From the NCBI GenBank assembly GCA_019057385.1, contig JAHQJS010000004.1, positions 320,001 to 384,000 of the forward strand: DNA of 64,000 nt. The letters are read 5' to 3'. Below are positions 18,011-32,437 of the stretch, piece after piece. Both the position numbers and the translations under genes were made by a program. Numbering within the stretch: the stretch's first letter is position 1; each line of letters starts with the position of its first letter. This DNA is from Candidatus Borrarchaeum weybense. GTDB taxonomy: Archaea > Asgardarchaeota > Sifarchaeia > Borrarchaeales > Borrarchaeaceae. Under the pieces are notes generated by a model. That model searched no databases and was not told where the DNA came from. It worked only from the letters and a program-made list of their open reading frames with translations.

Positions 18011-18940
18011 TTATATAGCACTTTCTGGTACGATCTTTTCAGCAAACTTTTTAGGATAAAATGCATCTAGATCTTTGTATTCTTGACCGATTCCAATAAA
18101 TACAATGGGCTTTTTCGTAACATGAGCAATAGAAATAGCAGCCCCTCCTTTTGCATCAGCATCAACTTTAGTCAGTATTGAAGCATCAATACCTACAGCC
18201 TCATTGAATTCGCGAGCTTGTTCGACGGCATCATTACCAGCAAGACTGTCTCCTACAAAGACTGTAATCACATTCGCGTCTTCGATTCGTTTAAGAACAC
18301 GAACGATCTTTTCCATCTCTCCCATAAGGTTCTTATTGGTTTGCATTCTCCCAGCAGTATCAATTAGAACAATATCTATGTTTTTTGCAATTGCATGACT
18401 AACAGCATCAAAGGCAACAGCAGCAGAATCCGAGCCATATTTGTGTTTGATTACTTTAACTCCAAGTTTGTTTGCATGAATTTCTATTTGCTCTATGCTT
18501 CCTGCACGGAAAGTATCCGATGCTGCAAGGACTACAGAAAAACCCTTTTTTTGGAATAGACTAGTAAGCTTGGCTAAAGTTGTTGTTTTTCCTGTACCAT
18601 TAACTCCTAAAAATACAATCGCTAAAGGTTGCCCCTGTTCTTTGCCTTTTTTTGCTAACTCAAAAAGATCTATACCCTCTACTTTAAGGATTTCTAGAAT
18701 TGTATTTCTTAAGGCACTATAGACGAATTTCTTTGTGCTCTTAAGACGACCTACCTTCTCACCAGTCAACTGTTGTTTCATAAGTTCTCCAATTTCAGCT
18801 GCCACGGAAAATGCAACGTCGTTTTGTATTAATATTATTTTCAAAGATTCAAGAACATCCTCTAACTGGTCTTCACTCAATGTCTTCGATGATATTTTTT
18901 CTGTAAAACCCTGAAGACCACTTCTTAGTTTTTCAAACAT
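18011..18940 (-). CDS. ftsY: SRP receptor FtsY (first 38 codons apparently supplied by the island)
   Basis: GVNGTGKTTT, DTFRAG, DTAGR, TKVDADAKGG, GIGQ; start MFEKL at 18940. Confidence 0.95.
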   Translation of the reverse strand: MFEKLRSGLQGFTEKISSKTLSEDQLEDVLESLKIILIQNDVAFSVAAEIGELMKQQLTGEKVGRLKSTKKFVYSALRNTILEILKVEGIDLFELAKKGKEQGQPLAIVFLGVNGTGKTTTLAKLTSLFQKKGFSVVLAASDTFRAGSIEQIEIHANKLGVKVIKHKYGSDSAAVAFDAVSHAIAKNIDIVLIDTAGRMQTNKNLMGEMEKIVRVLKRIEDANVITVFVGDSLAGNDAVEQAREFNEAVGIDASILTKVDADAKGGAAISIAHVTKKPIVFIGIGQEYKDLDAFYPKKFAEKIVPESAI

Positions 18941-19263
18941 AGATGTTTTCTCTCCGAGCATATGAAGCATTAAGGATTGATTGATTGCTTGACGCAAGTT
19001 TGTGACATATCAATCAGGTTTTTTAATATACGTTTTGATTCCGAATTTGAAAACTCAATTTTATCGAATAATTATTCAAAGAACATTTTAACACGCATTC
19101 ATCTCTTGTTGAATTATAAAAGATGTTATATCTGATGAGGATGTCTTACCTATTTTATAGTATTCTTGAGCAATAGTATGAATATATGTCGAATAGCTTT
19201 CTTTTATAAAAAATGTGAAAAATGCCCTTTTTCTCTTATATCAGATAATAATTAAGAATAACG

Positions 19264-19304
19264 AAAGGAGTGAGATGATCAGCACAAAACCGATCATCTC
19301 CTTT
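19264..19304 (-). terminator. Hairpin closing guide RNA 1 (terminator or 3' processing signal)
   Basis: AAAGGAG-TGAGATGATC ... GATCATCTC-CTTT inverted repeat just downstream of spacer 1 on the minus strand. Confidence 0.55.
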
Positions 19305-19310
19305 TGGATG

Positions 19311-19470
19311 ATTTCAGCTGCGACAGAAAGCGCGACATCGTTTTCGTGGGTATGACATTTTTCGTCCCTTGCGAGTCATCCGTCCCCTTCGATGAGGCGT
19401 CGGACCTCTCAGGTTCAGTCTCATGCACAAGAACGTGTCCCTCATGTTTTATGAGGAACATACCGCCTTG
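19311..19470 (-). ncRNA. Putative guide RNA 1: scaffold (19346-19436 core) plus 35-nt ftsY-matching spacer (19311-19345)
   Basis: Scaffold repeated at 20452-20546; spacer 28/35 identical to ftsY 18792-18826; own TATA box (TTTATATA, 19498-19505). Confidence 0.8.
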
Positions 19471-19541
19471 CAACTCATATATTCGCTTACAAAGACCTAT
19501 ATAAACACCACTCTTCATAACAAGGACTCCCAGTTCCATAC

Positions 19542-20354
19542 TTACATGTCCTCTTTCAGGTCATCAAGATAAAGGTTGACCATTAATAAGAGATGGTTTT
19601 TCAAAGAAGAAAAACCATAGGTTAGTGCTTCGTTGATTTTATCAAGGTCATTGCATTTTCGAATAAAGGTATAAAGTGCAAAAGGAGAGTATTGGCGCAG
19701 TTCTATCTCTCTTTTTAACGCGTTGAAATCTATCTCTTCTGATTCTGCTACATGATAACGTGAAAATGCAGTCCATCTAAATTTTCGAGAAATCATTGCA
19801 GACCATCTATCATAATTTTGTAGTAAAGAAAGCAGAGGAAAGTCTTTTTCATCTATAGTATAATTATGATGGTTCTTTGCGAGCTGATAGACTTCGTCAT
19901 TAATTATATCAACATCAGTATAAATTTTGCTTGGATGTCGATCAGTGCTTACAAAATCATGCAGGAGCATTGCTATAATTAACTTTTCCTGCACATCTGA
20001 GAGTTTTGGAAGTTTCTTACGTATGTTAATCTTTCTCGAAATATAGAGGGGTTTTTTCTTGAATTCACTCACAGAAGTCCAAAAGATTTGTCCCACCCCC
20101 TCACATGTATAACTCCCGACACTATCAATAGCTAGTGCTTTTTCAAGTTTATGTTCTGGAACGATGAACTCAACATTACCAAACCATGCCCTAAAGGTCA
20201 TTGGAGCACGTCTTTGTCCTACCGTTAATTTTCCGAATACCCTGGGACGACCATTTATAGTCATCGCACCAACATCGGTAACTCCAAAATGTCTACGCCT
20301 TGAAACGATAGGAGTTTTTGTATAACCAATCAATTTAAAGTATTTTTGTGACAT
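19542..20354 (-). CDS. Cas5-like RAMP fused to HD nuclease domain
   Basis: N-terminal beta-rich RAMP ending in G-loop VGSYTCEGVGQI; LLHDF..NHH..YDRWSA and C-terminal SLKNH. Confidence 0.7.
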   Translation of the reverse strand: MSQKYFKLIGYTKTPIVSRRRHFGVTDVGAMTINGRPRVFGKLTVGQRRAPMTFRAWFGNVEFIVPEHKLEKALAIDSVGSYTCEGVGQIFWTSVSEFKKKPLYISRKINIRKKLPKLSDVQEKLIIAMLLHDFVSTDRHPSKIYTDVDIINDEVYQLAKNHHNYTIDEKDFPLLSLLQNYDRWSAMISRKFRWTAFSRYHVAESEEIDFNALKREIELRQYSPFALYTFIRKCNDLDKINEALTYGFSSLKNHLLLMVNLYLDDLKEDM

Positions 20355-20404
20355 TTATTCCCCTCATTTGAGGTTTTACCTCCTCTTTAAACAAAAGAGA
20401 GGAG

Positions 20405-20570
20405 ATATAAACCTTGCCAAAGTAAACACGTTTGCAACTGTTGTTTGTAAAGTGGGTATGACATTTATCGTCCCTTGCGAGTCATCCATCCCCAATAATC
20501 GAGGCGTCGGACCTCTAAGTTGGTTCAGTCTCATGCACAAGAACGTATCACTCACATCAGTAGGTGATAG
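20405..20570 (-). ncRNA. Putative guide RNA 2: scaffold (20452-20546 core) plus spacer matching the cas7 promoter
   Basis: Second scaffold copy; 20405-20451 aligns to 21454-21501 (42/47 identities, one gap); followed by a CTCCTCT/AGAGGAG hairpin. Confidence 0.8.
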
Positions 20571-20608
20571 ACCGTTATGAGATGAGAAAAAAAGTTGAGA
20601 TAAATATG

Positions 20609-21418
20609 TCACACAACCACCTTCTCACCCTGTCCACTCATAAGATTCAAAGAAGTTCTCCAACCCTCGATATTACTTAGAGTTAGTGGAGTTTCAGTGG
20701 TTTCTTCGATAATTTTATAATTTCCTTCACTATCCTCTCCGATTCTTCGAATAGTTTCAACCTTCTGAAGAGCAATATTAAGGATCTTGACGCAACCATA
20801 ACCACTTGCCCGTCCTGCTCCAAGAATTTCTACGTAGAGCATTGCCTCTATAAGAAACTTGATTTCACCATCAGTTAAGTTAGTCACATCAATGTGAAAG
20901 GAAAAAAATCCGCTGAAATAACTCTCACGAAAGTCTTGGATAGGAATACCATCATAGGCAAGAGCTATCCTATTTTCGCTAGCGATGTGGACATTTTGAA
21001 CAGGCACTTCAGTTGTGTATTCCTTATGTTTAATCGAGACAATAGGATCTGCAGCGACAACAATAGAGGACTTTTCGCGGAAGGTGCCAAAGATTGTTCG
21101 GAGAATACAGGGAGGATCACATGTACCAAGCGCATGAAACCCTTTCGGAAGAACACTTTTACCATCTTTAAGCGCTGTTTTCTCAGAACTGTGACAGACT
21201 TCAATGTTGCAGTCTTGAGCAAGCTCCATACAGGCATGTCTTAGCATTCCTCGGATACCTTTAATGTAATAAAACTTAGTATTGAATGTCTTTGAACTGT
21301 TTGTGTAAGGAAGTTTCCCTAACAAGAGCATGCTAGAATTTTTCTGAATCGAGGCATTGATAGGCTTTGCTATGGGTGTAAAGGCATGAATAACTATCTG
21401 TTTTTTGATTTTTCTCAT
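20609..21418 (-). CDS. Cas7-group RAMP (Csm3/Csf2-like backbone subunit)
   Basis: TPI near N-terminus, KGIRGMLRH, Cys cluster ..C..PCILRTIFG, ENRI, C-terminal G-loop LGAGRASGYG. Confidence 0.82.
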   Translation of the reverse strand: MRKIKKQIVIHAFTPIAKPINASIQKNSSMLLLGKLPYTNSSKTFNTKFYYIKGIRGMLRHACMELAQDCNIEVCHSSEKTALKDGKSVLPKGFHALGTCDPPCILRTIFGTFREKSSIVVAADPIVSIKHKEYTTEVPVQNVHIASENRIALAYDGIPIQDFRESYFSGFFSFHIDVTNLTDGEIKFLIEAMLYVEILGAGRASGYGCVKILNIALQKVETIRRIGEDSEGNYKIIEETTETPLTLSNIEGWRTSLNLMSGQGEKVVV

Positions 21419-21452
21419 GTTTCCAACCTCAGATATATTTAGTACAAGTACC

Positions 21453-21501
21453 TATATAAACCTTGCTCAAAATAAACACTTTTCCAACTTTTGTTAGTAA
21501 A
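21453..21501 (-). promoter_or_regulatory. cas7 promoter (TATA/BRE region); predicted target of guide 2
   Basis: TTTATATA at 21453-21460, ~35 bp upstream of the cas7 ATG; same ACCTATATAAAC context as the guide-1 promoter. Confidence 0.75.
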
Positions 21502-21764
21502 ATGGGGATTAAATTGACTTCCATTTTAGAAATAAAGCATTTTTAACAGTTTTTAGATGAAAAACCATCGAATATTTAGTGCCTGCTTTATAAATAACAA
21601 AGTCAAGCAACAATTTACATCATCATCTCTTTAAAAGAATAAACATATGATTTAACAAAATTAAGCGATTACGAGAATTCACAAGGAATACATTAATGGT
21701 GTCAACTAAACTAAAAAATGTTCTTAAAAGAATAATTGTACCATTGATGGTTGCTAATAAATCA

Positions 21765-24700
21765 TTAGGGCAAAAGATCCTTAACTATAACTGGAGGACC
21801 TTTTTTCTGTGGTGTATAAATTCCCTCCATGTGTTGAAACCTTTCAAACATTAGAAGAAGAGCTTCTTTATCTGGAGCATAAATAAAGGGGACGAATCGC
21901 TTCTTTTCTAGCAAAAAATCCTTGAGTTGTAGTGCGCACTGCCTTATAGCATCCTTTACTGTCATATATTCATCCAGATAGTATATCTCTTGATTAAGTA
22001 TATCACCAACCAGTCTCTCAACTTTGTAGTGCCCGTTCCACGTTAAATGATAGAATCGTTCACGCTCTAATGTTTTACGTATCTTAAAATCGGCTTTTGT
22101 AAATTTACCATATATACATGCTAAGATGAAGGTGAACCTGAATAGGGGAAGAAACATCTCTCGGAAGTCAACGACGGTGCCAAGAAAGGATCGCCGTGTT
22201 TTCTTAAAATGCAATATCAGTTCATCGGGCACCCATGAGAACCCTACTTCAGCGAGTGCTTTTCGACAGTAAAAATTAAGATGGCGATAGACGGCATTGA
22301 GTGCCGCACTAAAGGGAGTTCGCGCCTTTGCTTCACCCAGAAGCACCACTGTGGCAATATAGCGATCGAGGGTACGACTAATGATCTCAAAGTAACTGCC
22401 TTGCAGCAAATGCTTGGGAACCTCCCAGGCAACGCTTTCCACTACCCCTTCAAGACCGCGAAGGTTGTCAATATTGCCCCGCCAATAGAGAAAAGTGTAC
22501 GCCACGCGATCCAGCAGTTGGGATAAGAATTCCTGTGCCTCCGCAGAAGATAATATCCCCTCTTTTTCAAACCAGAGAATTGCATTGGCGAGCCCCATAT
22601 TTTTACCCATCACCAGCAGCCTCGCTAATAACGTGCCTCGTTCCGTCCCTCTGAGTTGCTGGGCGGTGTGTTTCAGTTCATCAGCTAATTGTTGTTTCTC
22701 TGGTGTCAGTGTATGCTGTGCAAAGAATCTGCCTTCGGGCGAATTAATATCAATGAGTTTCTTGCCATAGTTCTTACGAACTAGTTGCGAAACTTCTCCA
22801 CCCTCGATGATGATGTGACAGATAGCACCGATTAAATATCGATGTGTTGTTTTCCCGTCCTTTAGTGCATGAGCAAATCGTTTTTTCTTAATATCAAGCC
22901 GTTCACCGCACTTGACACGAATGGTTCGTTTTGGTCGTCGAATGTAAACCTTTGTTTTTTTAACCCGCGGGACATAATTTCCGGGCTTGCCTAAAAGCAA
23001 ATCCAATCCTTTTAGCATCAAACCTCGGTTGCCTGGTTTCACCACCAAGTCACCTTTCATGGTCAAATAATAGCGGGAATTGCATTCGGGACAGACTGTG
23101 TATTCATTATAGCAGGATGGCAATTCCACCGTACCGCCGGAGTAGCAGAAGTAGCACGGAGTATCATCGAGTGTTTCTTGTATGGCACTAATTGTGCGCT
23201 TTTTTAACTCCCGCGCTTTCTGATGGTATTCGCAGGCACCCATCTTTGGTGCGGCATAGGATTTCCTTTCTTGCCTTCCAATTTTTGTGTTATACTTTTG
23301 ATTCAACACACAGATATGTGCACGTTTCGATCTGCGACGATCCTTCATAGAATTTATCCGAAAGAAGCCACATGAACCACAGGTGAGCCGCAGATGTTCA
23401 GGAATACTCATATTCGCGTCTGCCACATAGATTTTAGGGCGACCTCGTAACTGCCCTCGAGAGATAAATTGGATTTTTCCTTGGATTCCTAACTTCTTTG
23501 CATGTTTCACTACCGTAGTATGGTGAACTGGTCGATTATACTGTTTACGAACCTCTGACGTAATTTGTGCGTAAGAGATGACCTTATATTGATTAATAAT
23601 GTTATAAATTGCTTCTTGAAGTCCCGGATATGGTATCGGTCTGTACTTTGGATACCTGCGTCTCCTTCTGCCTTTGTTCCCTCTTTCAACTTCAGGCTCT
23701 TTGTATTCAGGATTTAGTTTTGTGGTAAGTTTTTTGGCAACCCTTGCCGCCCTCGGGTCACTGCGCCCCAGATAGTCATAACTTGCTTCTGCGATCCACG
23801 ACGCCGTCTTTCTATGTGCTTCTGCATCACCCGGTCGTATGTTTACCCGAGTTGCAGCTTTTGTGACCGAAGAACCCTGACTGAGTAACCATACGAAAGA
23901 GGCATATTGCTGGGCGGTATATCGTGTGGTGTTGCTCACTTCATGTATGCTTCGACCGATTAGTGTAATTACGTGCCGGGAGAATTCCCGTTCTGAGGAG
24001 CAATGATGTGTGGCAAAAAACTTCTTGATCCTTAAGGCGGTTTTAATCGGCAGTAAAAATTGGCTGGCCCAGCGTCCTTTGGCTGTTGCACTAAACTTTC
24101 CACCATTTCTTTTGATAAAACCTTCCTTGATAAGTGTGTGAAGGATTCCCTCTCTTTTTTTCTTCGGTTCATCCTGCTTAGGTCGAGCTAACAGTTTCTC
24201 TCTTAGTTGTTGTGTAAAGTCTTTCAACTGGTCGTGGGTGAATGGTGTCAACAGTAAGCGAAGCTCTCCGTTTTTGACCCCGCGTGTAGTGGTGTTCTTC
24301 TTGACCCACATGAAGAATTTTCTCGTTACACGTTTCAAGTCGAATGGGAGAGAGCCTTCGTGCGTTTCGCGCAATAAGGACAGTAAATGAAGTTCGTTAT
24401 TGAGCCGACAAAGCTCCTCTTCCTGGTTCATGAGTGCGTTATTCATTAGTTCGGACCAATTCTGTAGCAATGCTTTGTGTTGATGCCAGAAGTAATGTCT
24501 TTCAAGTTTGTGAAGTAATTGATTCGTGGATGCCGAGCCTCTAGCTATCAGGGTGAGTACAATATCTGCCAAAGAAGAACGTGCCTGGCTTGTTATACGA
24601 TGTTCTTTGACTATCAATTGTCCCTCGACGATTTGTATCTCCTTTTGCTTCAAAATTTCTTGATCGTCCCCCACGAAGATCAGATCAGCATAGCCCACCC

Positions 24701-25775
24701 GATGATGGCGCGGTCGTGCCGCCCTGCCACTCAATTGTATCAACAGGTGAGGGTTGAACATCCCGGCATCGGCAATTATCACCCGTTTGATCGGAAAGTC
24801 CACCCCCTCTCCGTATTGAATCGTTGACAGAAAAACCTGAAATTCACCCTTCTTAAGCCGTCTCATAGCTTCTTGTTGTTCCTCTTTACTGAGCCCGGCG
24901 TGACTGTAGCCCACGGTGAGATCGAGTCCACAACTCTTAAGAAAGGACTGCAACTCTATAGCTCGTTGTTCAACCTGATTTCGTGTGTAGCAAAAGATGT
25001 GCACGATTTTAGTCCCCTGATCATCACCATACGAGCGTTGTTCAAAGGTCTTTTTGATCAAGCGAGCGAACAGAAAGCGTTTTTTTCGTTCAATCTGCTC
25101 TATGGTGCTGCCTGAAACCCCACAAGATGACACAATAAGCTTCGACTGCCGTTCGTTGGTATGGATAAGTTGAGCGTCAAGCCAACTTACCAGTTCCTCG
25201 GCATTCCCCAGAGTAGCCGAGAGATAGATGATATGCGGGCGAGGGCGTAACCAAGATCTTGCATTGACGATTGCAGTTTCTAGGCGAGCACCCCGCCCTT
25301 TGTTGCCCAGATTGTGCAGTTCATCGACCACAATCAATCCTATCTTGTCTAAAAACGGATACTCGAAATGCTTAACTAGCAGTCCATTGAAGGATTCGTA
25401 GGTGCTGATGAGGATATCCGCCGTTTCAAGCTCTTCAGGAGACGAACGGTCATCTCCGCTGACTTTGAGGATGGTACAGGCGTCGTGATACCACTCTTTG
25501 AACTTGTCATACATCTGATCGATCAGCCGTTTGGTCGGCTCAAGAATTACACAGCGCATCCCTTTTCCAAGCACGCGGGTAGACACTATTTGGGATATCA
25601 AGGTTTTTCCCGAAGCGGTAGGAGTGTACAACACCTTGTCCTGCCTTTGTTTACCAGAAAAACATGCCTCCCATTGAAAGTCGTAGAGGGCGTTAATGTC
25701 AGCCTGTTCCAACCGTTGACGTATGAATTCGTAGTTTAACCCTCTTTTCGTCATTGTAATGAACTGGCCTCTCAA
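21765..25775 (-). CDS. Ski2/Hel308-like SF2 helicase - HTH/Zn-finger linker - divergent Cas1 integrase fusion
   Basis: Helicase: PTASGKT, DELH, SAT, HAGL, QLSGRAAR. Cas1 (~21765-22950): LRGLEG, PFSAALNAVY, ILH, DFREMF. Start may be ATG 25754; TATA box at ~25810. Confidence 0.82.
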   Translation of the reverse strand: MRGQFITMTKRGLNYEFIRQRLEQADINALYDFQWEACFSGKQRQDKVLYTPTASGKTLISQIVSTRVLGKGMRCVILEPTKRLIDQMYDKFKEWYHDACTILKVSGDDRSSPEELETADILISTYESFNGLLVKHFEYPFLDKIGLIVVDELHNLGNKGRGARLETAIVNARSWLRPRPHIIYLSATLGNAEELVSWLDAQLIHTNERQSKLIVSSCGVSGSTIEQIERKKRFLFARLIKKTFEQRSYGDDQGTKIVHIFCYTRNQVEQRAIELQSFLKSCGLDLTVGYSHAGLSKEEQQEAMRRLKKGEFQVFLSTIQYGEGVDFPIKRVIIADAGMFNPHLLIQLSGRAARPRHHRVGYADLIFVGDDQEILKQKEIQIVEGQLIVKEHRITSQARSSLADIVLTLIARGSASTNQLLHKLERHYFWHQHKALLQNWSELMNNALMNQEEELCRLNNELHLLSLLRETHEGSLPFDLKRVTRKFFMWVKKNTTTRGVKNGELRLLLTPFTHDQLKDFTQQLREKLLARPKQDEPKKKREGILHTLIKEGFIKRNGGKFSATAKGRWASQFLLPIKTALRIKKFFATHHCSSEREFSRHVITLIGRSIHEVSNTTRYTAQQYASFVWLLSQGSSVTKAATRVNIRPGDAEAHRKTASWIAEASYDYLGRSDPRAARVAKKLTTKLNPEYKEPEVERGNKGRRRRRYPKYRPIPYPGLQEAIYNIINQYKVISYAQITSEVRKQYNRPVHHTTVVKHAKKLGIQGKIQFISRGQLRGRPKIYVADANMSIPEHLRLTCGSCGFFRINSMKDRRRSKRAHICVLNQKYNTKIGRQERKSYAAPKMGACEYHQKARELKKRTISAIQETLDDTPCYFCYSGGTVELPSCYNEYTVCPECNSRYYLTMKGDLVVKPGNRGLMLKGLDLLLGKPGNYVPRVKKTKVYIRRPKRTIRVKCGERLDIKKKRFAHALKDGKTTHRYLIGAICHIIIEGGEVSQLVRKNYGKKLIDINSPEGRFFAQHTLTPEKQQLADELKHTAQQLRGTERGTLLARLLVMGKNMGLANAILWFEKEGILSSAEAQEFLSQLLDRVAYTFLYWRGNIDNLRGLEGVVESVAWEVPKHLLQGSYFEIISRTLDRYIATVVLLGEAKARTPFSAALNAVYRHLNFYCRKALAEVGFSWVPDELILHFKKTRRSFLGTVVDFREMFLPLFRFTFILACIYGKFTKADFKIRKTLERERFYHLTWNGHYKVERLVGDILNQEIYYLDEYMTVKDAIRQCALQLKDFLLEKKRFVPFIYAPDKEALLLMFERFQHMEGIYTPQKKGPPVIVKDLLP

Positions 25776-26228
25776 TTCCTGCCTCTCATTTACAATGGTT
25801 GCAAATTTCTATATAAAGAGGGGAACTTTTGGATCGCTGGCTCGAAAAACTATGTCACTTGAACTCTTCACAAACCAAAGCGTTTTCCAAATCAAATGCT
25901 ATTAGACACAAATTAGAGATCGTTACTTTCATTAATTGAATCTACACGAACTCTCACTAAAAACAAAATTGTAGCATTTATGAAAGAATTTTCAAATGAT
26001 AGCATCATTTGATAACGGGAACGTAATCTAATTTCGGGACGGTAAAATTATCGCTAAAACTAGGAATATGAATCTTTGAAATCATATAGGAGAGGAACTT
26101 CAACTCACTAGAGAGGCATAAGGATATGTGAAATCATAATTAAACAAATATGTCCAGCAAAAAATTACTAAGCTTTATTAGTTGCCAAGCTAATATCTAG
26201 ACGATTAATATGGACGCGGTTCGTAAAA

Positions 26229-28469
26229 ATGCCAACAGATGACCATTTTAAAAGAGGAATTGAATTCTTCAATCGAAAACAATACAAGAAGGCCATTAAA
26301 GCATTCAAGAAGGCTTTAACGTCAGACCAAGAACACTATGTGATATGGTACAACATGGGATTAGCTTTCTCGAAACTAGATAAATTCACTAATGCCATTT
26401 ATTGTTATAAAAAAGCCGTGAAAATTAACCCTGAGTTTGCAGAAGCGTGGGGCAACATGGGTGCTGCGTATCATGAGTTAGATAAGCTTAACAAAGCCAT
26501 CGAGTGCTTCCAAAGGGCATTGGAAATCAACCCTGAGTTAATAGACACATTAAACAATATGGCGGCAGTTTACATAAAATTAAATGAGTATAATAAAACT
26601 GTCGAATGTTATCAAAAAGTTTTGGAAATTGCCCCTATGAATAAAATCGCTTTGCATAATTTAGCTTGGGCTTATGGAAACTTAAATAATTATGAAAAAG
26701 CAGTTGAATATTACCAAAAGGCAATAAAAAACGAACCTGAATATGTATTCGCATGGAATAACTTAGGAGCGGTTTATGGAAAACTCGGTGAGTATAAAAA
26801 AGCCATTGAATGTTATGAAAAGGTCCTTAAACTTGACCCCATAAATGTAAAGGCATGGAAAGGCATAGAAATTGCTCACAGAAAATTAAACGAATTTGCT
26901 GAGGCAATTGAGTGTTGCCAAAGAGTTATAGAACTCAATTCTAGCGATATAGACACATGGAATAATATGGGCGTTTCCTACGGAGAATTGGGCGAATATA
27001 ATAAAGCTATCGCATGTTTTGAAGAAATATTAAGAATTGAACCCAATAACGCAAAAGCGCTGAATAACGCAGGAATTGCCTACGAAGGATTAAATGAGTT
27101 TAAAAATGCGCTTAACTATTATAAGAAGGCTTTAGAAATTGATCCTAATTATGTAGATGCATGGTACAACATGGGCAACGCCTATAAAAAGTTAGACGAA
27201 CACATGAAAGCAATTGATTGCTACAAGAAAGTCGTGGCAATTGACTCAGAGCATACAAAAGCATGGAATAATTTGGGCAATACCTATGAAAAATTAGACC
27301 TACATATGCCTGCGATCGAATGCTATGAGAAAGCGTTGAAAATTAACCCTGAGTTTGTTAATGCTTGGTATAACATAGGTAATGTCTATAGAAACTTAGA
27401 CGAAGACATGAAGGCGATTGAATGTTATAAGAAAGCTGTGGAAATCGACTCGAAGCACTCAAAAGCATGGGGAAATATGGGTGCCATTTACACGCTTTTA
27501 GGTGAACACATGTCTGCAATCGAGTGCTATAAGAATGCTGTAGAAGCTAGTCCTGAATATGCTGGCGCGTGGTATAACATGGGTGTGACCTATGTAGAAG
27601 TAGGCAAATACATGTCTGCAATCGAATGCTATAAGAAAGCATTGGAAATAAATCCCGATTATATAGATGCATGGACGGGGATGGGGATCGCGTATGCAAC
27701 GTCTGATAATTATAATAATGCCTTTGAGTCCTTTCAAAACGCATTGGACATCAATTCTGAAGATGTTGGTACATGGTACAATTTAGGTGTGACTTACAAG
27801 AAATTAGGAGAGCGTAACAAGGCACATGATTGTTTTAAAAAGGCTCTGGAGATCAATCCTAAAGATATATTGTCAGCATACAATATGGGGGCGATTCAAG
27901 CAGAACTAAATGCAGAAAAGAAGATCTCAGAATTAAAGAACGACGTTGATTTTCTGAAAGGTCAAGAACTAGAGAATAAGATAAGTGAACTTGTCGAGAA
28001 ATCGTATAGTTTTCAATGCAAAAGAGAATATCGTGTCCAAAAATTGGAGGACGAAGAAGTCGAAAAATTCATTGAAAGAGGTTGTTATAGAGAAAGTACT
28101 AAATCAGTTGAATTAGATGTAATAGCTATAAAGGAAGAAGCCAAAACTGGGAAAAAACGCCCTGCCATGTTACTTTGTGAGTGTAAAGCCAAAAATACGC
28201 ATACAAATGAAAAACAAATCAAATGTTTCCTTTTAAAGACAGAAATTTGGAAGAGAAAATTTACTGAATTTTATGAATCCATGCCTGATTATCTCGCCCC
28301 AGAGTTCATATTATGGTATGTTAGCTTAAAAGGATTTACCAGAAACGCTGAAACGCTAATAAATCAAAATAAGATTGAGCCCTTTGATCTTGAAAAATTA
28401 AACAAGGAATTGAAGAAAGTAAATATTCTAACAATTCCTAAGAGATTTATTGCAGAACAAGAAAATTAG
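26229..28469 (+). CDS. TPR-repeat protein with C-terminal PD-(D/E)xK (Mrr/restriction endonuclease-like) domain
   Basis: ~16 TPRs (AWYNMG..Y..AIECY.KAL.I.P); ELDVIA..CECK..VSLKGFT. Confidence 0.8.
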   Translation: MPTDDHFKRGIEFFNRKQYKKAIKAFKKALTSDQEHYVIWYNMGLAFSKLDKFTNAIYCYKKAVKINPEFAEAWGNMGAAYHELDKLNKAIECFQRALEINPELIDTLNNMAAVYIKLNEYNKTVECYQKVLEIAPMNKIALHNLAWAYGNLNNYEKAVEYYQKAIKNEPEYVFAWNNLGAVYGKLGEYKKAIECYEKVLKLDPINVKAWKGIEIAHRKLNEFAEAIECCQRVIELNSSDIDTWNNMGVSYGELGEYNKAIACFEEILRIEPNNAKALNNAGIAYEGLNEFKNALNYYKKALEIDPNYVDAWYNMGNAYKKLDEHMKAIDCYKKVVAIDSEHTKAWNNLGNTYEKLDLHMPAIECYEKALKINPEFVNAWYNIGNVYRNLDEDMKAIECYKKAVEIDSKHSKAWGNMGAIYTLLGEHMSAIECYKNAVEASPEYAGAWYNMGVTYVEVGKYMSAIECYKKALEINPDYIDAWTGMGIAYATSDNYNNAFESFQNALDINSEDVGTWYNLGVTYKKLGERNKAHDCFKKALEINPKDILSAYNMGAIQAELNAEKKISELKNDVDFLKGQELENKISELVEKSYSFQCKREYRVQKLEDEEVEKFIERGCYRESTKSVELDVIAIKEEAKTGKKRPAMLLCECKAKNTHTNEKQIKCFLLKTEIWKRKFTEFYESMPDYLAPEFILWYVSLKGFTRNAETLINQNKIEPFDLEKLNKELKKVNILTIPKRFIAEQEN

Positions 28470-28640
28470 GCTTAAAAGATCCTTCTAAACTTTCGACATG
28501 ACGTAATTGAACTAATAAAAATAAATAGCATAAAATGTGATAGATATGGAAAAAGTAGAAGCGTTTTCATGGTATTTTGTTAAAAATAAATGGCCTGATT
28601 TAATTAACCGTTTCCATATTTTTCCCATAGGACTTTTAGG

Positions 28641-29207
28641 TTGGTTATCAGAATAAAAACTACATATTATCCATCTCTTAATGTTCAACAAATTAACTTT
28701 GTCCAAACAATCCTTATAAGATGGTGGAAAGAGGAAATAAGTGCAAAAGGAAAAAGAGACTTTTTCTGGAGGAAATGGATACTTGATCCTAAGATGACTA
28801 CCGTCATTTTGGAGGATTTTTCGTTTCCTCGTGATTTTGGTATATTTTGTACTGAAACAGCCCTGCGAAAAACACGCGCTGAAACTGTAGAAATTCATTT
28901 TAGACCATTTTTCAGGAGGTTTCATAGTTTTCAAGAAGTTAAAGCTGCAGATACAAAAGAATTAAGAAAAGTCCTATACCCCCTAGGTCGTGTCTCCCAG
29001 AATGTACGAGACCTTAAACAACGGGCTACAATAATAATAAACGAATTTAATTCGGAAGTCCCATGTACTAAAGAATACATAAGACGTCTAATGAAAACCT
29101 ATACACGAAAAATCTTACTGGAACACAGTTTCGAACATGGAGATGCAATAAACAGTACTTTGGTGCCTTTGCCACAATTCCTCCATCAGCTAATTCTAAG
29201 AGATTAA
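28641..29207 (+). pseudogene. Truncated HhH-GPD DNA glycosylase (MutY/MIG-like)
   Basis: KRDFFWR, ETALRKTRAETV, PLG, EVPCTKE; similarity ends before the HhH motif and FeS cluster. Confidence 0.6.
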
Positions 29208-29281
29208 GAGGATACAACATTTAAACCTTTGTGTGAGACCTTTTTCGTCTACCGCAAGTCAATGACCTCATTATAAAATAG

Positions 29282-29407
29282 TTATACTAGAAAAAGAAGA
29301 ATTAATTGTAGTTCCCAGAGAACATCATCAATTTGATCTTCGCTTAAAGTCTTAGTGGATACCTTGTCAGCGAATCCTGTGAGACTCTTTTTTAACTTTT
29401 CAAACAT
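29282..29407 (-). pseudogene. Stranded original 5' end of ftsY (41 codons)
   Basis: MFEKLKKSLTGFADKVSTKTLSEDQIDDVLWELQLILLFLV*; 23/38 aa identical to the FtsY N-terminus; directly downstream of pfdA. Confidence 0.9.
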
Positions 29408-29469
29408 CTTAATTTCTCTCTATGAAGGTCACTTAAACAGTAATTGTTCAGAAAAAAGTAATATTGATG

Positions 29470-29895
29470 CTATTTTTGTTGCATCTTATTGTAAGTTTCT
29501 TGTACAGTAGCCCGAAGTTCTTCTATTCTCTGGAGAGTGGTTCCCAACTGGTTTTGGAGTGTTGTGGAAATTCCTCGTAGTTCTTGTAATCGTTCAGCAA
29601 GTTTTTCTTGAGCGTTCTCTATACTCGTTTCAATAACTACATCACTACCTATCCCTAGAATAACCTTTTGTACGTTTGCAAGTGTTGCAAAAACAAATGA
29701 ATTCGATCCAATAGGTAAAAGGACCTCTTGACCTTCTTCTGCTTTAGTGATTCCATCAAGTGTGACACCTGTAATTGTAATCTGATTAATTTGAGCTTCA
29801 ACAGCTTCGACATTAGTTCTTAATACATCTGCATTAGCTTGTTGATGATTGAGTTCGTGAACCATCTGTTCAATCTTTTTTTGTTCTTCAGCCAT
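29470..29895 (-). CDS. pfdA: Prefoldin subunit alpha
   Basis: Coiled coils flanking EVLLPIGSNSFV..VILGIGSDVVIE. Confidence 0.92.
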   Translation of the reverse strand: MAEEQKKIEQMVHELNHQQANADVLRTNVEAVEAQINQITITGVTLDGITKAEEGQEVLLPIGSNSFVFATLANVQKVILGIGSDVVIETSIENAQEKLAERLQELRGISTTLQNQLGTTLQRIEELRATVQETYNKMQQK

Positions 29896-31645: not shown

Positions 31646-31990
31646 CTATTTTCGTGTGATTTTAATATCTCTTTGTTTATCAGTCAATCTTCGTAAAATG
31701 GTTTTTAATTGGTCATCAGTTAATACATTGCCAAGTCGTCCAGCTTGTGCAAGTTGAATTAATTGAAGTTCAACCGCTTCAGCCAATTCGGGTTTTACAA
31801 TTTTTATTCGATTCAATCGTTCTCTTGCTTCAGGAGTCAATATCTGTCGGAGTATTGCTTGTTTCTGGGCTTCTAGTTCCTGTTGCATTTGTGCTTGTCG
31901 TTCTTGTTCTCCTTGTTGCTGTTGTAACTCAAGCATACGTCTTTTCTTTAATTCTTCAAGTTCTTCATCCGACAAGGTTTTTCCCTCCAA
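31646..31990 (-). CDS. PDCD5-family DNA-binding protein
   Basis: [28 protein letters not shown]. Confidence 0.93.
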
Positions 31991-32005
31991 GTTAAAAAAT
32001 CATTC

Positions 32006-32437
32006 TTACTTTTTTAATTGCTTTAAAATCTTGTTAGCAGCACGATCCATAAAAGAACGACCTTTAGCCGATAATGTTCGGCCAGAAGTATCATTTGGCT
32101 TCTCAATAAAACCTAACGCCTCTAATTGTTGTAAACCTAATCTAATTATCTTCCCAGCGCCTTTTCTAAAATGCTCTCTTCTATTGCCTTTGCGTAGTCT
32201 TCCTCCATACTTTATTCGAAGACGATTGACTCCAATTGGGCCATTAATATATACTTTACGTAGCAGGCTAGCTAGCCTGACATACCACCAATTAGGATTG
32301 GTCGGTGCCTTCTCCCGAAAGACGCCAGTTTTAACAAAGGACGCCCATGCTGGAGGTTTAAGCTCATCTATGTTCTTAAGTTCACTCGCAACTTCTTTAT
32401 TTAGTATAGCCGCTGGCACTTCATAAATGGTAACCAT
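32006..32437 (-). CDS. rps19e: 30S ribosomal protein S19e
   Basis: PAWASFVKTG, WWYVRLASLLRKVY, GPIGVNRLR..YGG. Confidence 0.95.
   Translation of the reverse strand: MVTIYEVPAAILNKEVASELKNIDELKPPAWASFVKTGVFREKAPTNPNWWYVRLASLLRKVYINGPIGVNRLRIKYGGRLRKGNRREHFRKGAGKIIRLGLQQLEALGFIEKPNDTSGRTLSAKGRSFMDRAANKILKQLKK

Follow-up and report, generated by a model that had tools for sequence, protein, structure and literature searches.

The window analysed here is a stretch of 64,000 nt from the Asgard archaeon Candidatus Borrarchaeum weybense (assembly GCA_019057385.1, contig JAHQJS010000004.1, positions 320,001 to 384,000 of the forward strand; positions given below without another label are those of the window). 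Three co-oriented minus-strand genes lie together in it, encoding a 1336-aa fusion of a Hel308-type helicase with a Cas1-like integrase (21765-25775; Cas1 domain 1e-7), a Cas7/Csm3-like RAMP protein (20609-21418) and a 270-aa protein, p270 (19542-20354), a predicted RAMP-HD protein. Two copies of a repeat lie on the same strand, the internal copy 2 (20452-20582) in the gap between the RAMP and p270 genes, and the terminal copy 1 (19346-19476) behind p270. Comparison of these copies with related genomes revealed a family of structured RNAs of about 130 nt, apparently undescribed, whose 3' end was shown to coincide with the right-hand boundary of insertions that are present in some genomes and absent from others.

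Alignment of the copies delimits a conserved unit of about 131 nt, which opens with the leader CAAGRCGGWAUGY and closes with AUGUC-AUACCCAC. Copy 1 scores 145.7 bits with the covariance model and comprises the leader, four helices (P1-P4), the GUC of a pseudoknot (19354-19356, minus strand) and the 8-nt tail AUACCCAC (19346-19353, minus strand), the final base of which is the right end of a 9.9-kb insertion; copy 2 scores 132.6 bits. A preliminary description of this DNA, made from the letters of the window alone, had correctly placed the two near-identical copies and their differences, which fall in non-conserved stretches, but its unit of about 95-120 nt falls short of the full extent with the conserved leader. 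A TATA box (TTTATATA, 19498-19505, minus strand), read from the sequence 26 nt upstream of the copy 1 leader, lies in a context (GGTGTTTATATAG) that is kept upstream of other terminal copies in the alignment and is putatively the RNA's own promoter. Behind the copy 1 tail come a guide-like segment, termed T' (19311-19345, minus strand), and a 12-bp, GC-rich hairpin with a T-rich tract (19272-19300, minus strand; folding z -2.75), a putative terminator of the transcript of scaffold and T'. This transcript would run from near position 19480, about 5-10 nt before CAAGGCGG, as far as the hairpin, near 19270. Copy 2 is followed by sequence of a different kind (20377-20451, minus strand): it consists of a conserved promoter module (TTTAC...GCAAGGTTTATAT) and the 5' untranslated region hairpin of the p270 gene, with a strong hairpin at 20377-20407 (minus strand). 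A second copy of this module, preceded by an RNA-tail remnant (AATTTAATCCCCA), stands upstream of the RAMP gene (21454-21506, minus strand) and is 86.8% identical over 53 nt, so that by sequence identity the copy 2 extension is the promoter common to both effector genes (RAMP and p270).

Several elements of the preliminary description, which had proposed a scaffold in place of CRISPR repeats, are borne out by these observations, including a hairpin after each variable stretch and a structured RNA beside Cas-like genes at a locus with neither a CRISPR array nor Cas6. The variable stretches themselves, which it had taken for spacers, are of other origin: that of copy 1 is not foreign DNA but the next 34 nt of an interrupted ftsY gene, and in copy 2 it is the next gene's promoter. 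No short regular repeats of the CRISPR kind were found at the window locus. The RNA copies are 1106 nt apart in the window and 159-1105 nt apart elsewhere, spacings foreign to a CRISPR array, in which short repeats of about 25-40 bp alternate regularly with unique spacers about as long; three units in a row occur in L078 alone, an array described below.

The fold was evaluated on 84 aligned copies from six genomes of two Asgard genera, with 500 column shuffles and slid-partner controls. Paired cells made up 90.7% of those observed against 78.0% after shuffling and 41-50% in the slid controls, and 23 of the 29 pairs change on both sides; none of the 500 shuffles reached the observed values. P1 is a 10-bp hairpin in which nine of ten pairs vary on both sides, and corresponds to the sequence-divergent but structurally equivalent hairpin already recognised in the preliminary description. 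P2 joins CGUUCU to GGGACG, with conserved U-G pairs, P3 joins CC-NN(N) to (N)NN-GG and by inspection covaries (CCAA/UUGG, CCAU/AUGG, CCCG/CGGG, CUCAUC/GAUGAG), and P4 (GAGG/CCUC) encloses the 7-nt loop UCCGACG. The GAC of this loop forms a pseudoknot with the 3' GUC, the first pair being G-C in 36 copies, C-G in 24 and A-U in 14, and the 3' variants GUC/GUG covary with the loop variants GAC/CAC/AAC. The two window copies differ mostly by a compensated lengthening of P3. Folding of single sequences gives ordinary energies (z -1.9 and -0.3 for the two window copies), so that support for the fold is comparative; covariation across the alignment showed both the RNA family and its P1-P4 and pseudoknot architecture, and the presence of conserved G-U pairs speaks for a minus-strand RNA.

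Because covariation supports P2-P4 and the pseudoknot, three hairpins proposed earlier were mis-assigned. The supposed ACC/GGU and CCUC/GGGG stems dissolve into other helices, with GGU in P4, CC paired to the GG of GGGG as P3, and GGGACG paired to CGUUCU as P2; a GAC-N7-GUC hairpin fails in every copy that carries GUG, and its GUC pairs with the P4 loop. P3 is flanked by invariant CUGA and GGAUGA motifs. By eye, neither a hammerhead nor a canonical k-turn with a 3-nt bulge fitted CUGA/GAUGA, and no Rfam C/D family matched on the element. An Rfam search (release 15), one of the checks suggested at the outset, gave no match at the gathering threshold in the whole window, the best sub-threshold matches being at chance level (E 0.5-9).

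The family is numerous in this genome. BLAST found 24 copies in the 4.18-Mb assembly and a covariance model built from 20 copies found 26, 20 of which directly follow a RAMP or p270 paralogue at a distance of up to about 190 nt and in every case share its strand, while 5-6 copies are solo, with no cas-like genes. The preliminary description had held that scatter independent of cas genes would tell against its proposal if it belonged to a known miniature inverted-repeat transposable element (MITE) or non-coding RNA; the scatter is real and in part tells against it, although the repeat matches no known family. Among 100 related genomes, the RNA occurs in four others of the same genus (3-21 matches each) and in one of another family of the same class (G005; 31 matches), and was not found in the remaining 95 genomes of the phylum that were searched. 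The flank of one G005 copy (L083) matches contig 5 of C. Borrarchaeum weybense (C5:84376-84451) at 93%, a likeness across families that hints at recent transfer. No scaffold RNA was detectable at a divergent RAMP-p270 pair with overlapping genes on contig 5 (L132, G000:C5:80696-82265; 42% and 33% identity). Solo units of 0.4-0.6 kb (L065, L076, L074, and C4:903446 of this genome) sit at sites that are empty in a sister genome; like MITEs or palindrome-associated transposable elements (PATEs), they are multi-copy, present or absent at orthologous sites and devoid of enzymes of their own. Terminal inverted repeats were not found.

Copy 1 could be placed relative to an insertion boundary by comparison with the sister genomes. 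ftsY, normally an essential gene, is uninterrupted in three of them (G002, G004 and G001), where the equivalent of window position 18954 is joined to that of 29294. The alignment delimits an insertion of 9,948 bp (19346-29293), whose final base is also that of the 8-nt tail and so lies 8 nt beyond the GUC of the pseudoknot; since the tail thus occupies the last bases of the insert, the mobile insertion has copy 1 as its right end, and the tail seen in the preliminary description is a real boundary established independently by the empty sites. On the minus strand the junction reads CTTCTT|TTTCTAG. Upstream of the insertion, the native promoter-proximal part of ftsY is stranded with its start codon and about 38 codons (29294-29422, minus strand); this fragment is by eye nearer to G004 than the flanking background of about 90%, and in the relatives the T' sequence comes straight after it. 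Downstream of the insertion are the 34 nt that the relatives have immediately after CTTCTT (GAAAACGATG...; 19345-19311), that is, the ftsY codons directly after the insertion point, and then the hairpin and T tract.

The rest of the locus is a patch (18792-19271, minus strand). In it, a stretch of about 317 nt with no counterpart in the relatives (18955-19271, minus strand), a presumed replacement promoter, precedes a divergent ftsY 5' end (18792-18954, minus strand) that is fused to the host-like remainder of ftsY and is far more diverged than the background of about 90%; the relatives align from 18954 downwards. From these alignments, a promoter and 5' end of foreign appearance restore the interrupted ftsY. 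A long target-site duplication was considered as the source of the two ftsY 5' ends and set aside, as the copies are only about 69% identical, while flanking host DNA agrees with the relatives at about 90%. A decayed piece of the scaffold 3' part lies 24 nt inside the left junction (29229-29269, minus strand). Contigs of four metagenomic DNA runs over 18500-29700 showed no joint across the insertion, and the empty allele was not seen among them; one soil-metagenome contig carries the same ftsY-RNA junction. Among public sequencing runs, no RNA run was listed as containing this DNA. The left part of the insertion (25776-29293) is cargo found in this copy alone, unlike the multi-copy helicase-Cas1/RAMP/p270 part, and contains on the plus strand a TPR gene with a non-TPR C-terminal part (26229-28469; 746 aa) and an open reading frame resembling HhH-GPD (28641-29207; 188 aa).

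The same relation between RNA and boundary recurs at ten further independent sites in relatives, where homology to the RNA-free site of C. Borrarchaeum weybense begins 8-12 nt after the GUC, with clean examples at L070 (6.9 kb), L067 (1.5 kb), L068, L065 and L075. For insertions of 6931, 2136, 1545, 1015 and 557 bp both junctions can be seen, and three more were delimited in this genome, of 6.9 kb at a PRC-barrel gene, 10.6 kb on contig 5 and 5.3 kb at pyrD. The left ends are less orderly: no conserved end, motif or inverted repeat was found among the insertions, 2-312 nt of host DNA were lost there, and two of them contain scaffold fragments (29229-29269 in the window, and L068). A target duplication of 14-15 bp was not seen, and two loci showed an overlap of 7-8 nt. 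Several insertions (L067, L068, L075) in which the element is directly followed by host DNA, here termed class 1, abut or supply the start codon of a co-oriented gene. The 1545-bp insertion L067 (G001:C176:3444-4988), which contains two RNA copies in tandem, lies directly after the ATG of a host gene, and its last three bases, directly behind the 8-nt tail, are a new in-frame ATG, so that the host gene is probably still translatable.

The sequence behind the tail takes two forms. In class 1 insertions the extension is the host DNA abutting the element, and in 13 class 2 units the tail is followed by a strong hairpin that begins 35-58 nt later. In about ten units we identified a T', a copy of 23-46 nt of host DNA found at or near the insertion junction, on either strand, most of these copies beginning 0-4 nt after the tail. 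The ftsY T' matches the resident copy (18792-18825) at 28 of 34 positions, five of the six mismatches being synonymous third positions, and scores 19 against a shuffled maximum of 11. The PRC-barrel T' matches the empty alleles of G004 and G002 at 29 and 28 of 30 positions and the resident copy at only 25 of 30; the pyrD T' matches the native G004 start at 36 of 38, the resident gene lacking the first 13 nt. On contig 5, the T' of an internal array unit matches a target 5 nt beyond the right junction (27/31), and L076 has a T' with 26 matches out of 27. Three others are reverse-complementary to their targets: L077 (27/28), with the target 11-17 nt from the left junction and the resident flank altered at 8 of 21 nt, L059 (22/23), and L074, which corresponds to the first 23 nt or so of the downstream gene, exactly where host homology resumes. 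With match scores of 17.5-22.5 against at most 12.5 for shuffled queries, these comparisons showed that T' segments match DNA at or near insertion junctions. Long "guide" matches at L073 and L068 were set aside as the N-termini of tandem paralogous acyl-CoA-dehydrogenase-like genes, and that of L064_4349 as probably a paralogous-gene case of the same kind.

L078 (G004:C9:1150-3100) is an array of three units, each of scaffold, variable stretch and hairpin, with a p270 gene and then a fourth unit behind them. Of the variable segments in this array, one of 46 nt matches the 16S rRNA gene in the sense orientation at 42 of 46 positions (L139, G000:C5:332704-332749). On contig C13 of G004, 16S homology stops 13 nt into this matched site and gives way to more than 20 kb of DNA absent from C. 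Borrarchaeum weybense; assembly breaks are common in rRNA genes. The 16S rRNA gene of C. Borrarchaeum weybense (L139, C5:332567-334200) spans 1634 nt over model positions 1-1043, about 590 nt of it extra and probably intronic, with an open frame of 81 or more aa in the extra sequence (L139:2757-2999).

The neighbouring genes identify the system to which the RNA is attached. The RAMP protein matches PF03787 above the family cut-off (4e-6), and its relatives carry the source names Csm3 or RAMP. p270 has no Pfam family, and our homologue search found its family restricted to Asgard archaea. Its structure model (predicted local distance difference test, pLDDT, 86.5) shows an N-terminal RAMP-like beta-rich domain with a G-rich loop; a helical domain carries the invariant residues H132, D133, H140, H162 and H163. 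Foldseek returned no PDB match with E at or below 0.001; many of the weak ones (E of at least 0.07) are RAMP proteins. These features are consistent with p270 as the predicted Cas5-like/HD partner of the RAMP protein. Complex prediction of the pair gave an interaction score (ipSAE, interaction prediction score from aligned errors) of 0.63 against 0.00 for the best control, a mark that 58 of 80 solved complexes but only 2 of 110 mismatched pairs attain, with at least 73% of contacts common to the runs and a partner pLDDT of at least 63; the predicted interface involves the RAMP domain and G-rich loop of p270. The prediction supports binding, although part of it may be a likeness to solved Cas5-Cas7 complexes.

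Together, a Cas7-like RAMP, a putative second, Cas5-like RAMP with a nuclease-type domain, a divergent Cas1, an Asgard host and the lack of a CRISPR array mark this gene set as the array-less module named ARAMP (Asgard RAMP), which was reportedly first described by Makarova et al. in CRISPR J in 2020. About six complete helicase-Cas1/RAMP/p270 modules and several RAMP/p270 pairs occur in this genome, with protein identities of 33-89%, the helicase-Cas1 gene being multi-copy, and homologous proteins carry source names from Borrarchaeum, Promethearchaeota, and Heimdall-, Thor- and Sif-archaea. Reviews describe ARAMP as array-less, type-III-derived, confined to Asgard archaea and often accompanied by a distinct Cas1, with an "enigmatic" mechanism and a suspected tie to unknown mobile elements (PMC8730458, PMC12669027), and it has been in the CRISPR classification since 2020 as possibly not programmable. 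No mention of an RNA partner was found in the literature searched, which included these reviews and did not extend to the original 2020 description; relative to the reviews, our analysis adds a structured RNA together with its fold, its place at the boundary of the element and its guide-like extensions. The idea of a scaffold replacing CRISPR repeats survives in the spacer-sized variable stretch and in the L078 array, but its gene module had already been published. Nothing observed speaks for the self-cleavage, the replacement of a large subunit or the bridge to Cas1 that the preliminary description had suggested.

We lean towards a reading in which the repeat is a transposon-end guide-RNA scaffold for the RAMP/RAMP-HD complex, comparable to an omega RNA or to the homing guide of a CRISPR-associated transposon (CAST); it is favoured because the boundary is sharp, the RNA is associated with the effector genes and targets lie beside junctions on either strand. 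The repeats would then mark a mobile insertion family, from 0.4-kb solo units to ARAMP-encoding elements of about 10 kb, all with the RNA at the right-hand end. We infer that the RNA is made from its own TATA promoter as scaffold, 8-nt tail and variable 3' extension; RAMP-HD would bind scaffold and tail as Cas5 binds the 5' handle of a CRISPR RNA (crRNA), and the Cas7-like RAMP would coat the extension. In alleles that lack the element, the ribonucleoprotein so formed would recognise the matching DNA, leading to homing or integration or to retention of the element, with helicase-Cas1 as the likely integrase. Where a gene is split, as in ftsY, the element would supply a replacement promoter and gene end with a diverged or truncated copy of the target. 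Autoregulation is also possible, since the copy 2 extension is the promoter common to the two effector genes.

Several observations weigh against a guide-RNA scaffold. T' matches were identified in only about 10 of about 40 genus-level units, and none were found in the second genus (G005), for which there are no close empty sites. The distance from target to junction is 0-17 nt at most loci and 83-224 nt at L059, on either strand, and relative to its target gene T' has the sense orientation at ftsY, PRC, pyrD and L059 and the antisense one at L077 and L074; because distance and orientation vary, no fixed geometry or protospacer-adjacent motif emerged, and the bases 5' of the targets (CTT, CTT, ACT, TTT, TTA, CAT) show no clear consensus. 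In class 1 units the guide would be the element's own flank, so that a rule to tell self from non-self would be needed. Most T' cases in direct orientation could be leftovers of target duplication, and the heterogeneous left ends with their frequent replacement of 25-312 nt of host DNA are untidy for a defined transposition mechanism. At distant ARAMP loci (Heimdall, Thor), the covariance model detected no RNA downstream (E of at least 0.3), and host genes follow directly after the RAMP/p270-like genes.

The T' segments would also be consistent with a natural home-and-rescue gene drive, an extension of guide function that we regard as doubtful. The guide would target the intact allele of a host gene, in many cases an essential one (ftsY, pyrD, possibly 16S rRNA), the Cas1-encoding element would insert at the target, and element-free chromosome copies would be attacked or converted while carriers are immune; immunity plus rescue is suggested because resident targets are diverged or truncated and gene ends are supplied, but at only three to four loci. 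It is rather unlikely that the RNA is instead a structural or regulatory RNA of the element end, the T' being scars of Cas1-type integration with a target duplication of 25-35 bp, and the RNA serving as an assembly scaffold for RAMP, as a promoter or leader module for the downstream gene, or as an antitoxin-like regulator. Cas1-family integrases do duplicate their targets, in CRISPR adaptation and in casposons; of the nine or ten T' cases, six form direct repeats on either side of a segment of hairpin and promoter, and the class 1 units that abut or supply start codons (L067, L068, L075) clearly act as upstream modules for host genes. Scars would not, however, explain the three T' that are reverse-complementary to their target (L077, L059, L074), the contig 5 T' that sits in an internal array unit and matches DNA past the far end of the element, or the T' that matches a distant 16S rRNA gene, and duplicated gene ends that have diverged by up to about 30% (ftsY) are not fresh duplications.

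Quite improbable, in our judgement, is that the scaffolds are giant CRISPR-like repeats behind whose tail helicase-Cas1 adds spacers, the ribonucleoprotein serving in defence or gene regulation and the nearby matches reflecting acquisition in cis. A spacer-sized variable stretch between a constant tail and a hairpin, the multi-unit arrays (L078, contig 5) and the presence of Cas1 would fit, and the use of a shared effector promoter as the copy 2 extension recalls the CRISPR-repeat-like autoregulatory RNAs of a preprint (bioRxiv 10.1101/2023.03.03.530964). Yet no T' matched foreign-looking DNA, the identified targets all being genes of the host where the element inserted; a separate spacer is missing from class 1 units, many units have no Cas1 nearby, and Cas2 is absent. 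The conserved sequence might also act as DNA, as a terminal recombination site for helicase-Cas1, possibly in the form of a folded single strand, with RNA structure incidental. We consider this very improbable, although the sequence does coincide exactly with the boundary of the element, two left ends have partial copies nearby (29229-29269; L068), and IS200/IS605-type elements use structured single-stranded DNA ends. The conserved G-U pairs (U-G in 75 of 84 copies at two P2/P4 positions, with alternation of UG and UA) would be A-C mismatches on the other strand and weak in DNA, a conserved TATA box stands at the right upstream distance with a putative terminator downstream, there are solo and internal copies far from any Cas1 gene, and the left ends have no conserved counterpart.

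A guide-RNA scaffold at a transposon end would have its closest parallel in the omega RNAs or right-end element RNAs of TnpB and IscB (IS200/IS605), in which the scaffold's 3' end is the element boundary on the right, the guide lies 3' of the scaffold in flanking host DNA, as in our class 1, and solo copies resemble PATEs and MITEs. At ftsY and ten other sites, the scaffold likewise ends at the right end of the element with the guide just outside. However, the partner here is not TnpB or IscB but a Cas7/Cas5-like class 1 effector pair with no RuvC, the candidate integrase is helicase-Cas1 rather than a transposase of the Y1 or serine type, neither sequence nor Rfam comparison shows similarity, many units have a hard-wired guide and terminator, and the left ends are undefined. 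The homing crRNAs of CASTs (I-F3, I-B, V-K) share an element-borne, mismatch-tolerant guide to a conserved neighbouring host gene and a class-1-derived effector with no Cas3-type shredder; our elements differ in lacking Tn7 machinery, CRISPR repeats, Cas6 and a fixed distance from guide to insertion, and in their intragenic insertions with a replacement gene end. An Asgard Cas1 homologue, aCas1, has been proposed to act as the transposase that accompanies TnpB, an RNA-guided nuclease, in elements that combine it with an RNA-guided module and a hypervariable guide-like region (PMC10691335); here the RNA-guided module would be ARAMP with a different RNA, and Cas1 is fused to a Hel308-type helicase. 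Class 1 crRNAs resemble our RNA in the constant 8 nt before the variable part, the hairpin after it and the Cas5-like and Cas7-like partners, but here the 8 nt stay on a scaffold of about 120 nt, Cas6 is lacking, the units are irregularly spaced and the hairpin is not repeat-derived. Casposons are likewise mobile elements that use a Cas1-family integrase, although with PolB and terminal inverted repeats, which we did not find, and lacking the RNA end and RAMP genes present here.

If the guide-RNA interpretation is correct, scaffold RNAs with target-matching extensions would be the missing guide of ARAMP, making it programmable, and a Cas7/Cas5-type effector would be linked to Cas1-driven mobility with neither Tn7 machinery nor a CRISPR array. 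This would bear on the origin of guide RNAs and CRISPR repeats from transposon ends, on the roles of Asgard Cas1 and on compact multi-subunit RNA-guided integration, and the pairs of filled and empty sites provide concrete guide-target pairs.

Two other insertion sites were noted in the course of these comparisons. Just downstream of the PRC-barrel gene, C. Borrarchaeum weybense carries an insertion of about 380 nt relative to G004 and G002 (G000:C3:90934-91313; L041 positions 610-989); its last 130 nt or so recur widely in all four sister genomes at 81-90% identity, and because its end is found at so many places it is a separate MITE-like repeat. Within the window itself, the G001 homologue of 31648-32431 (G000:C4:351648-352431) adjoins two tandem RNA copies (L062) and its neighbourhood is inverted relative to C. 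Borrarchaeum weybense, which by synteny makes this another site of insertion or rearrangement in the block.

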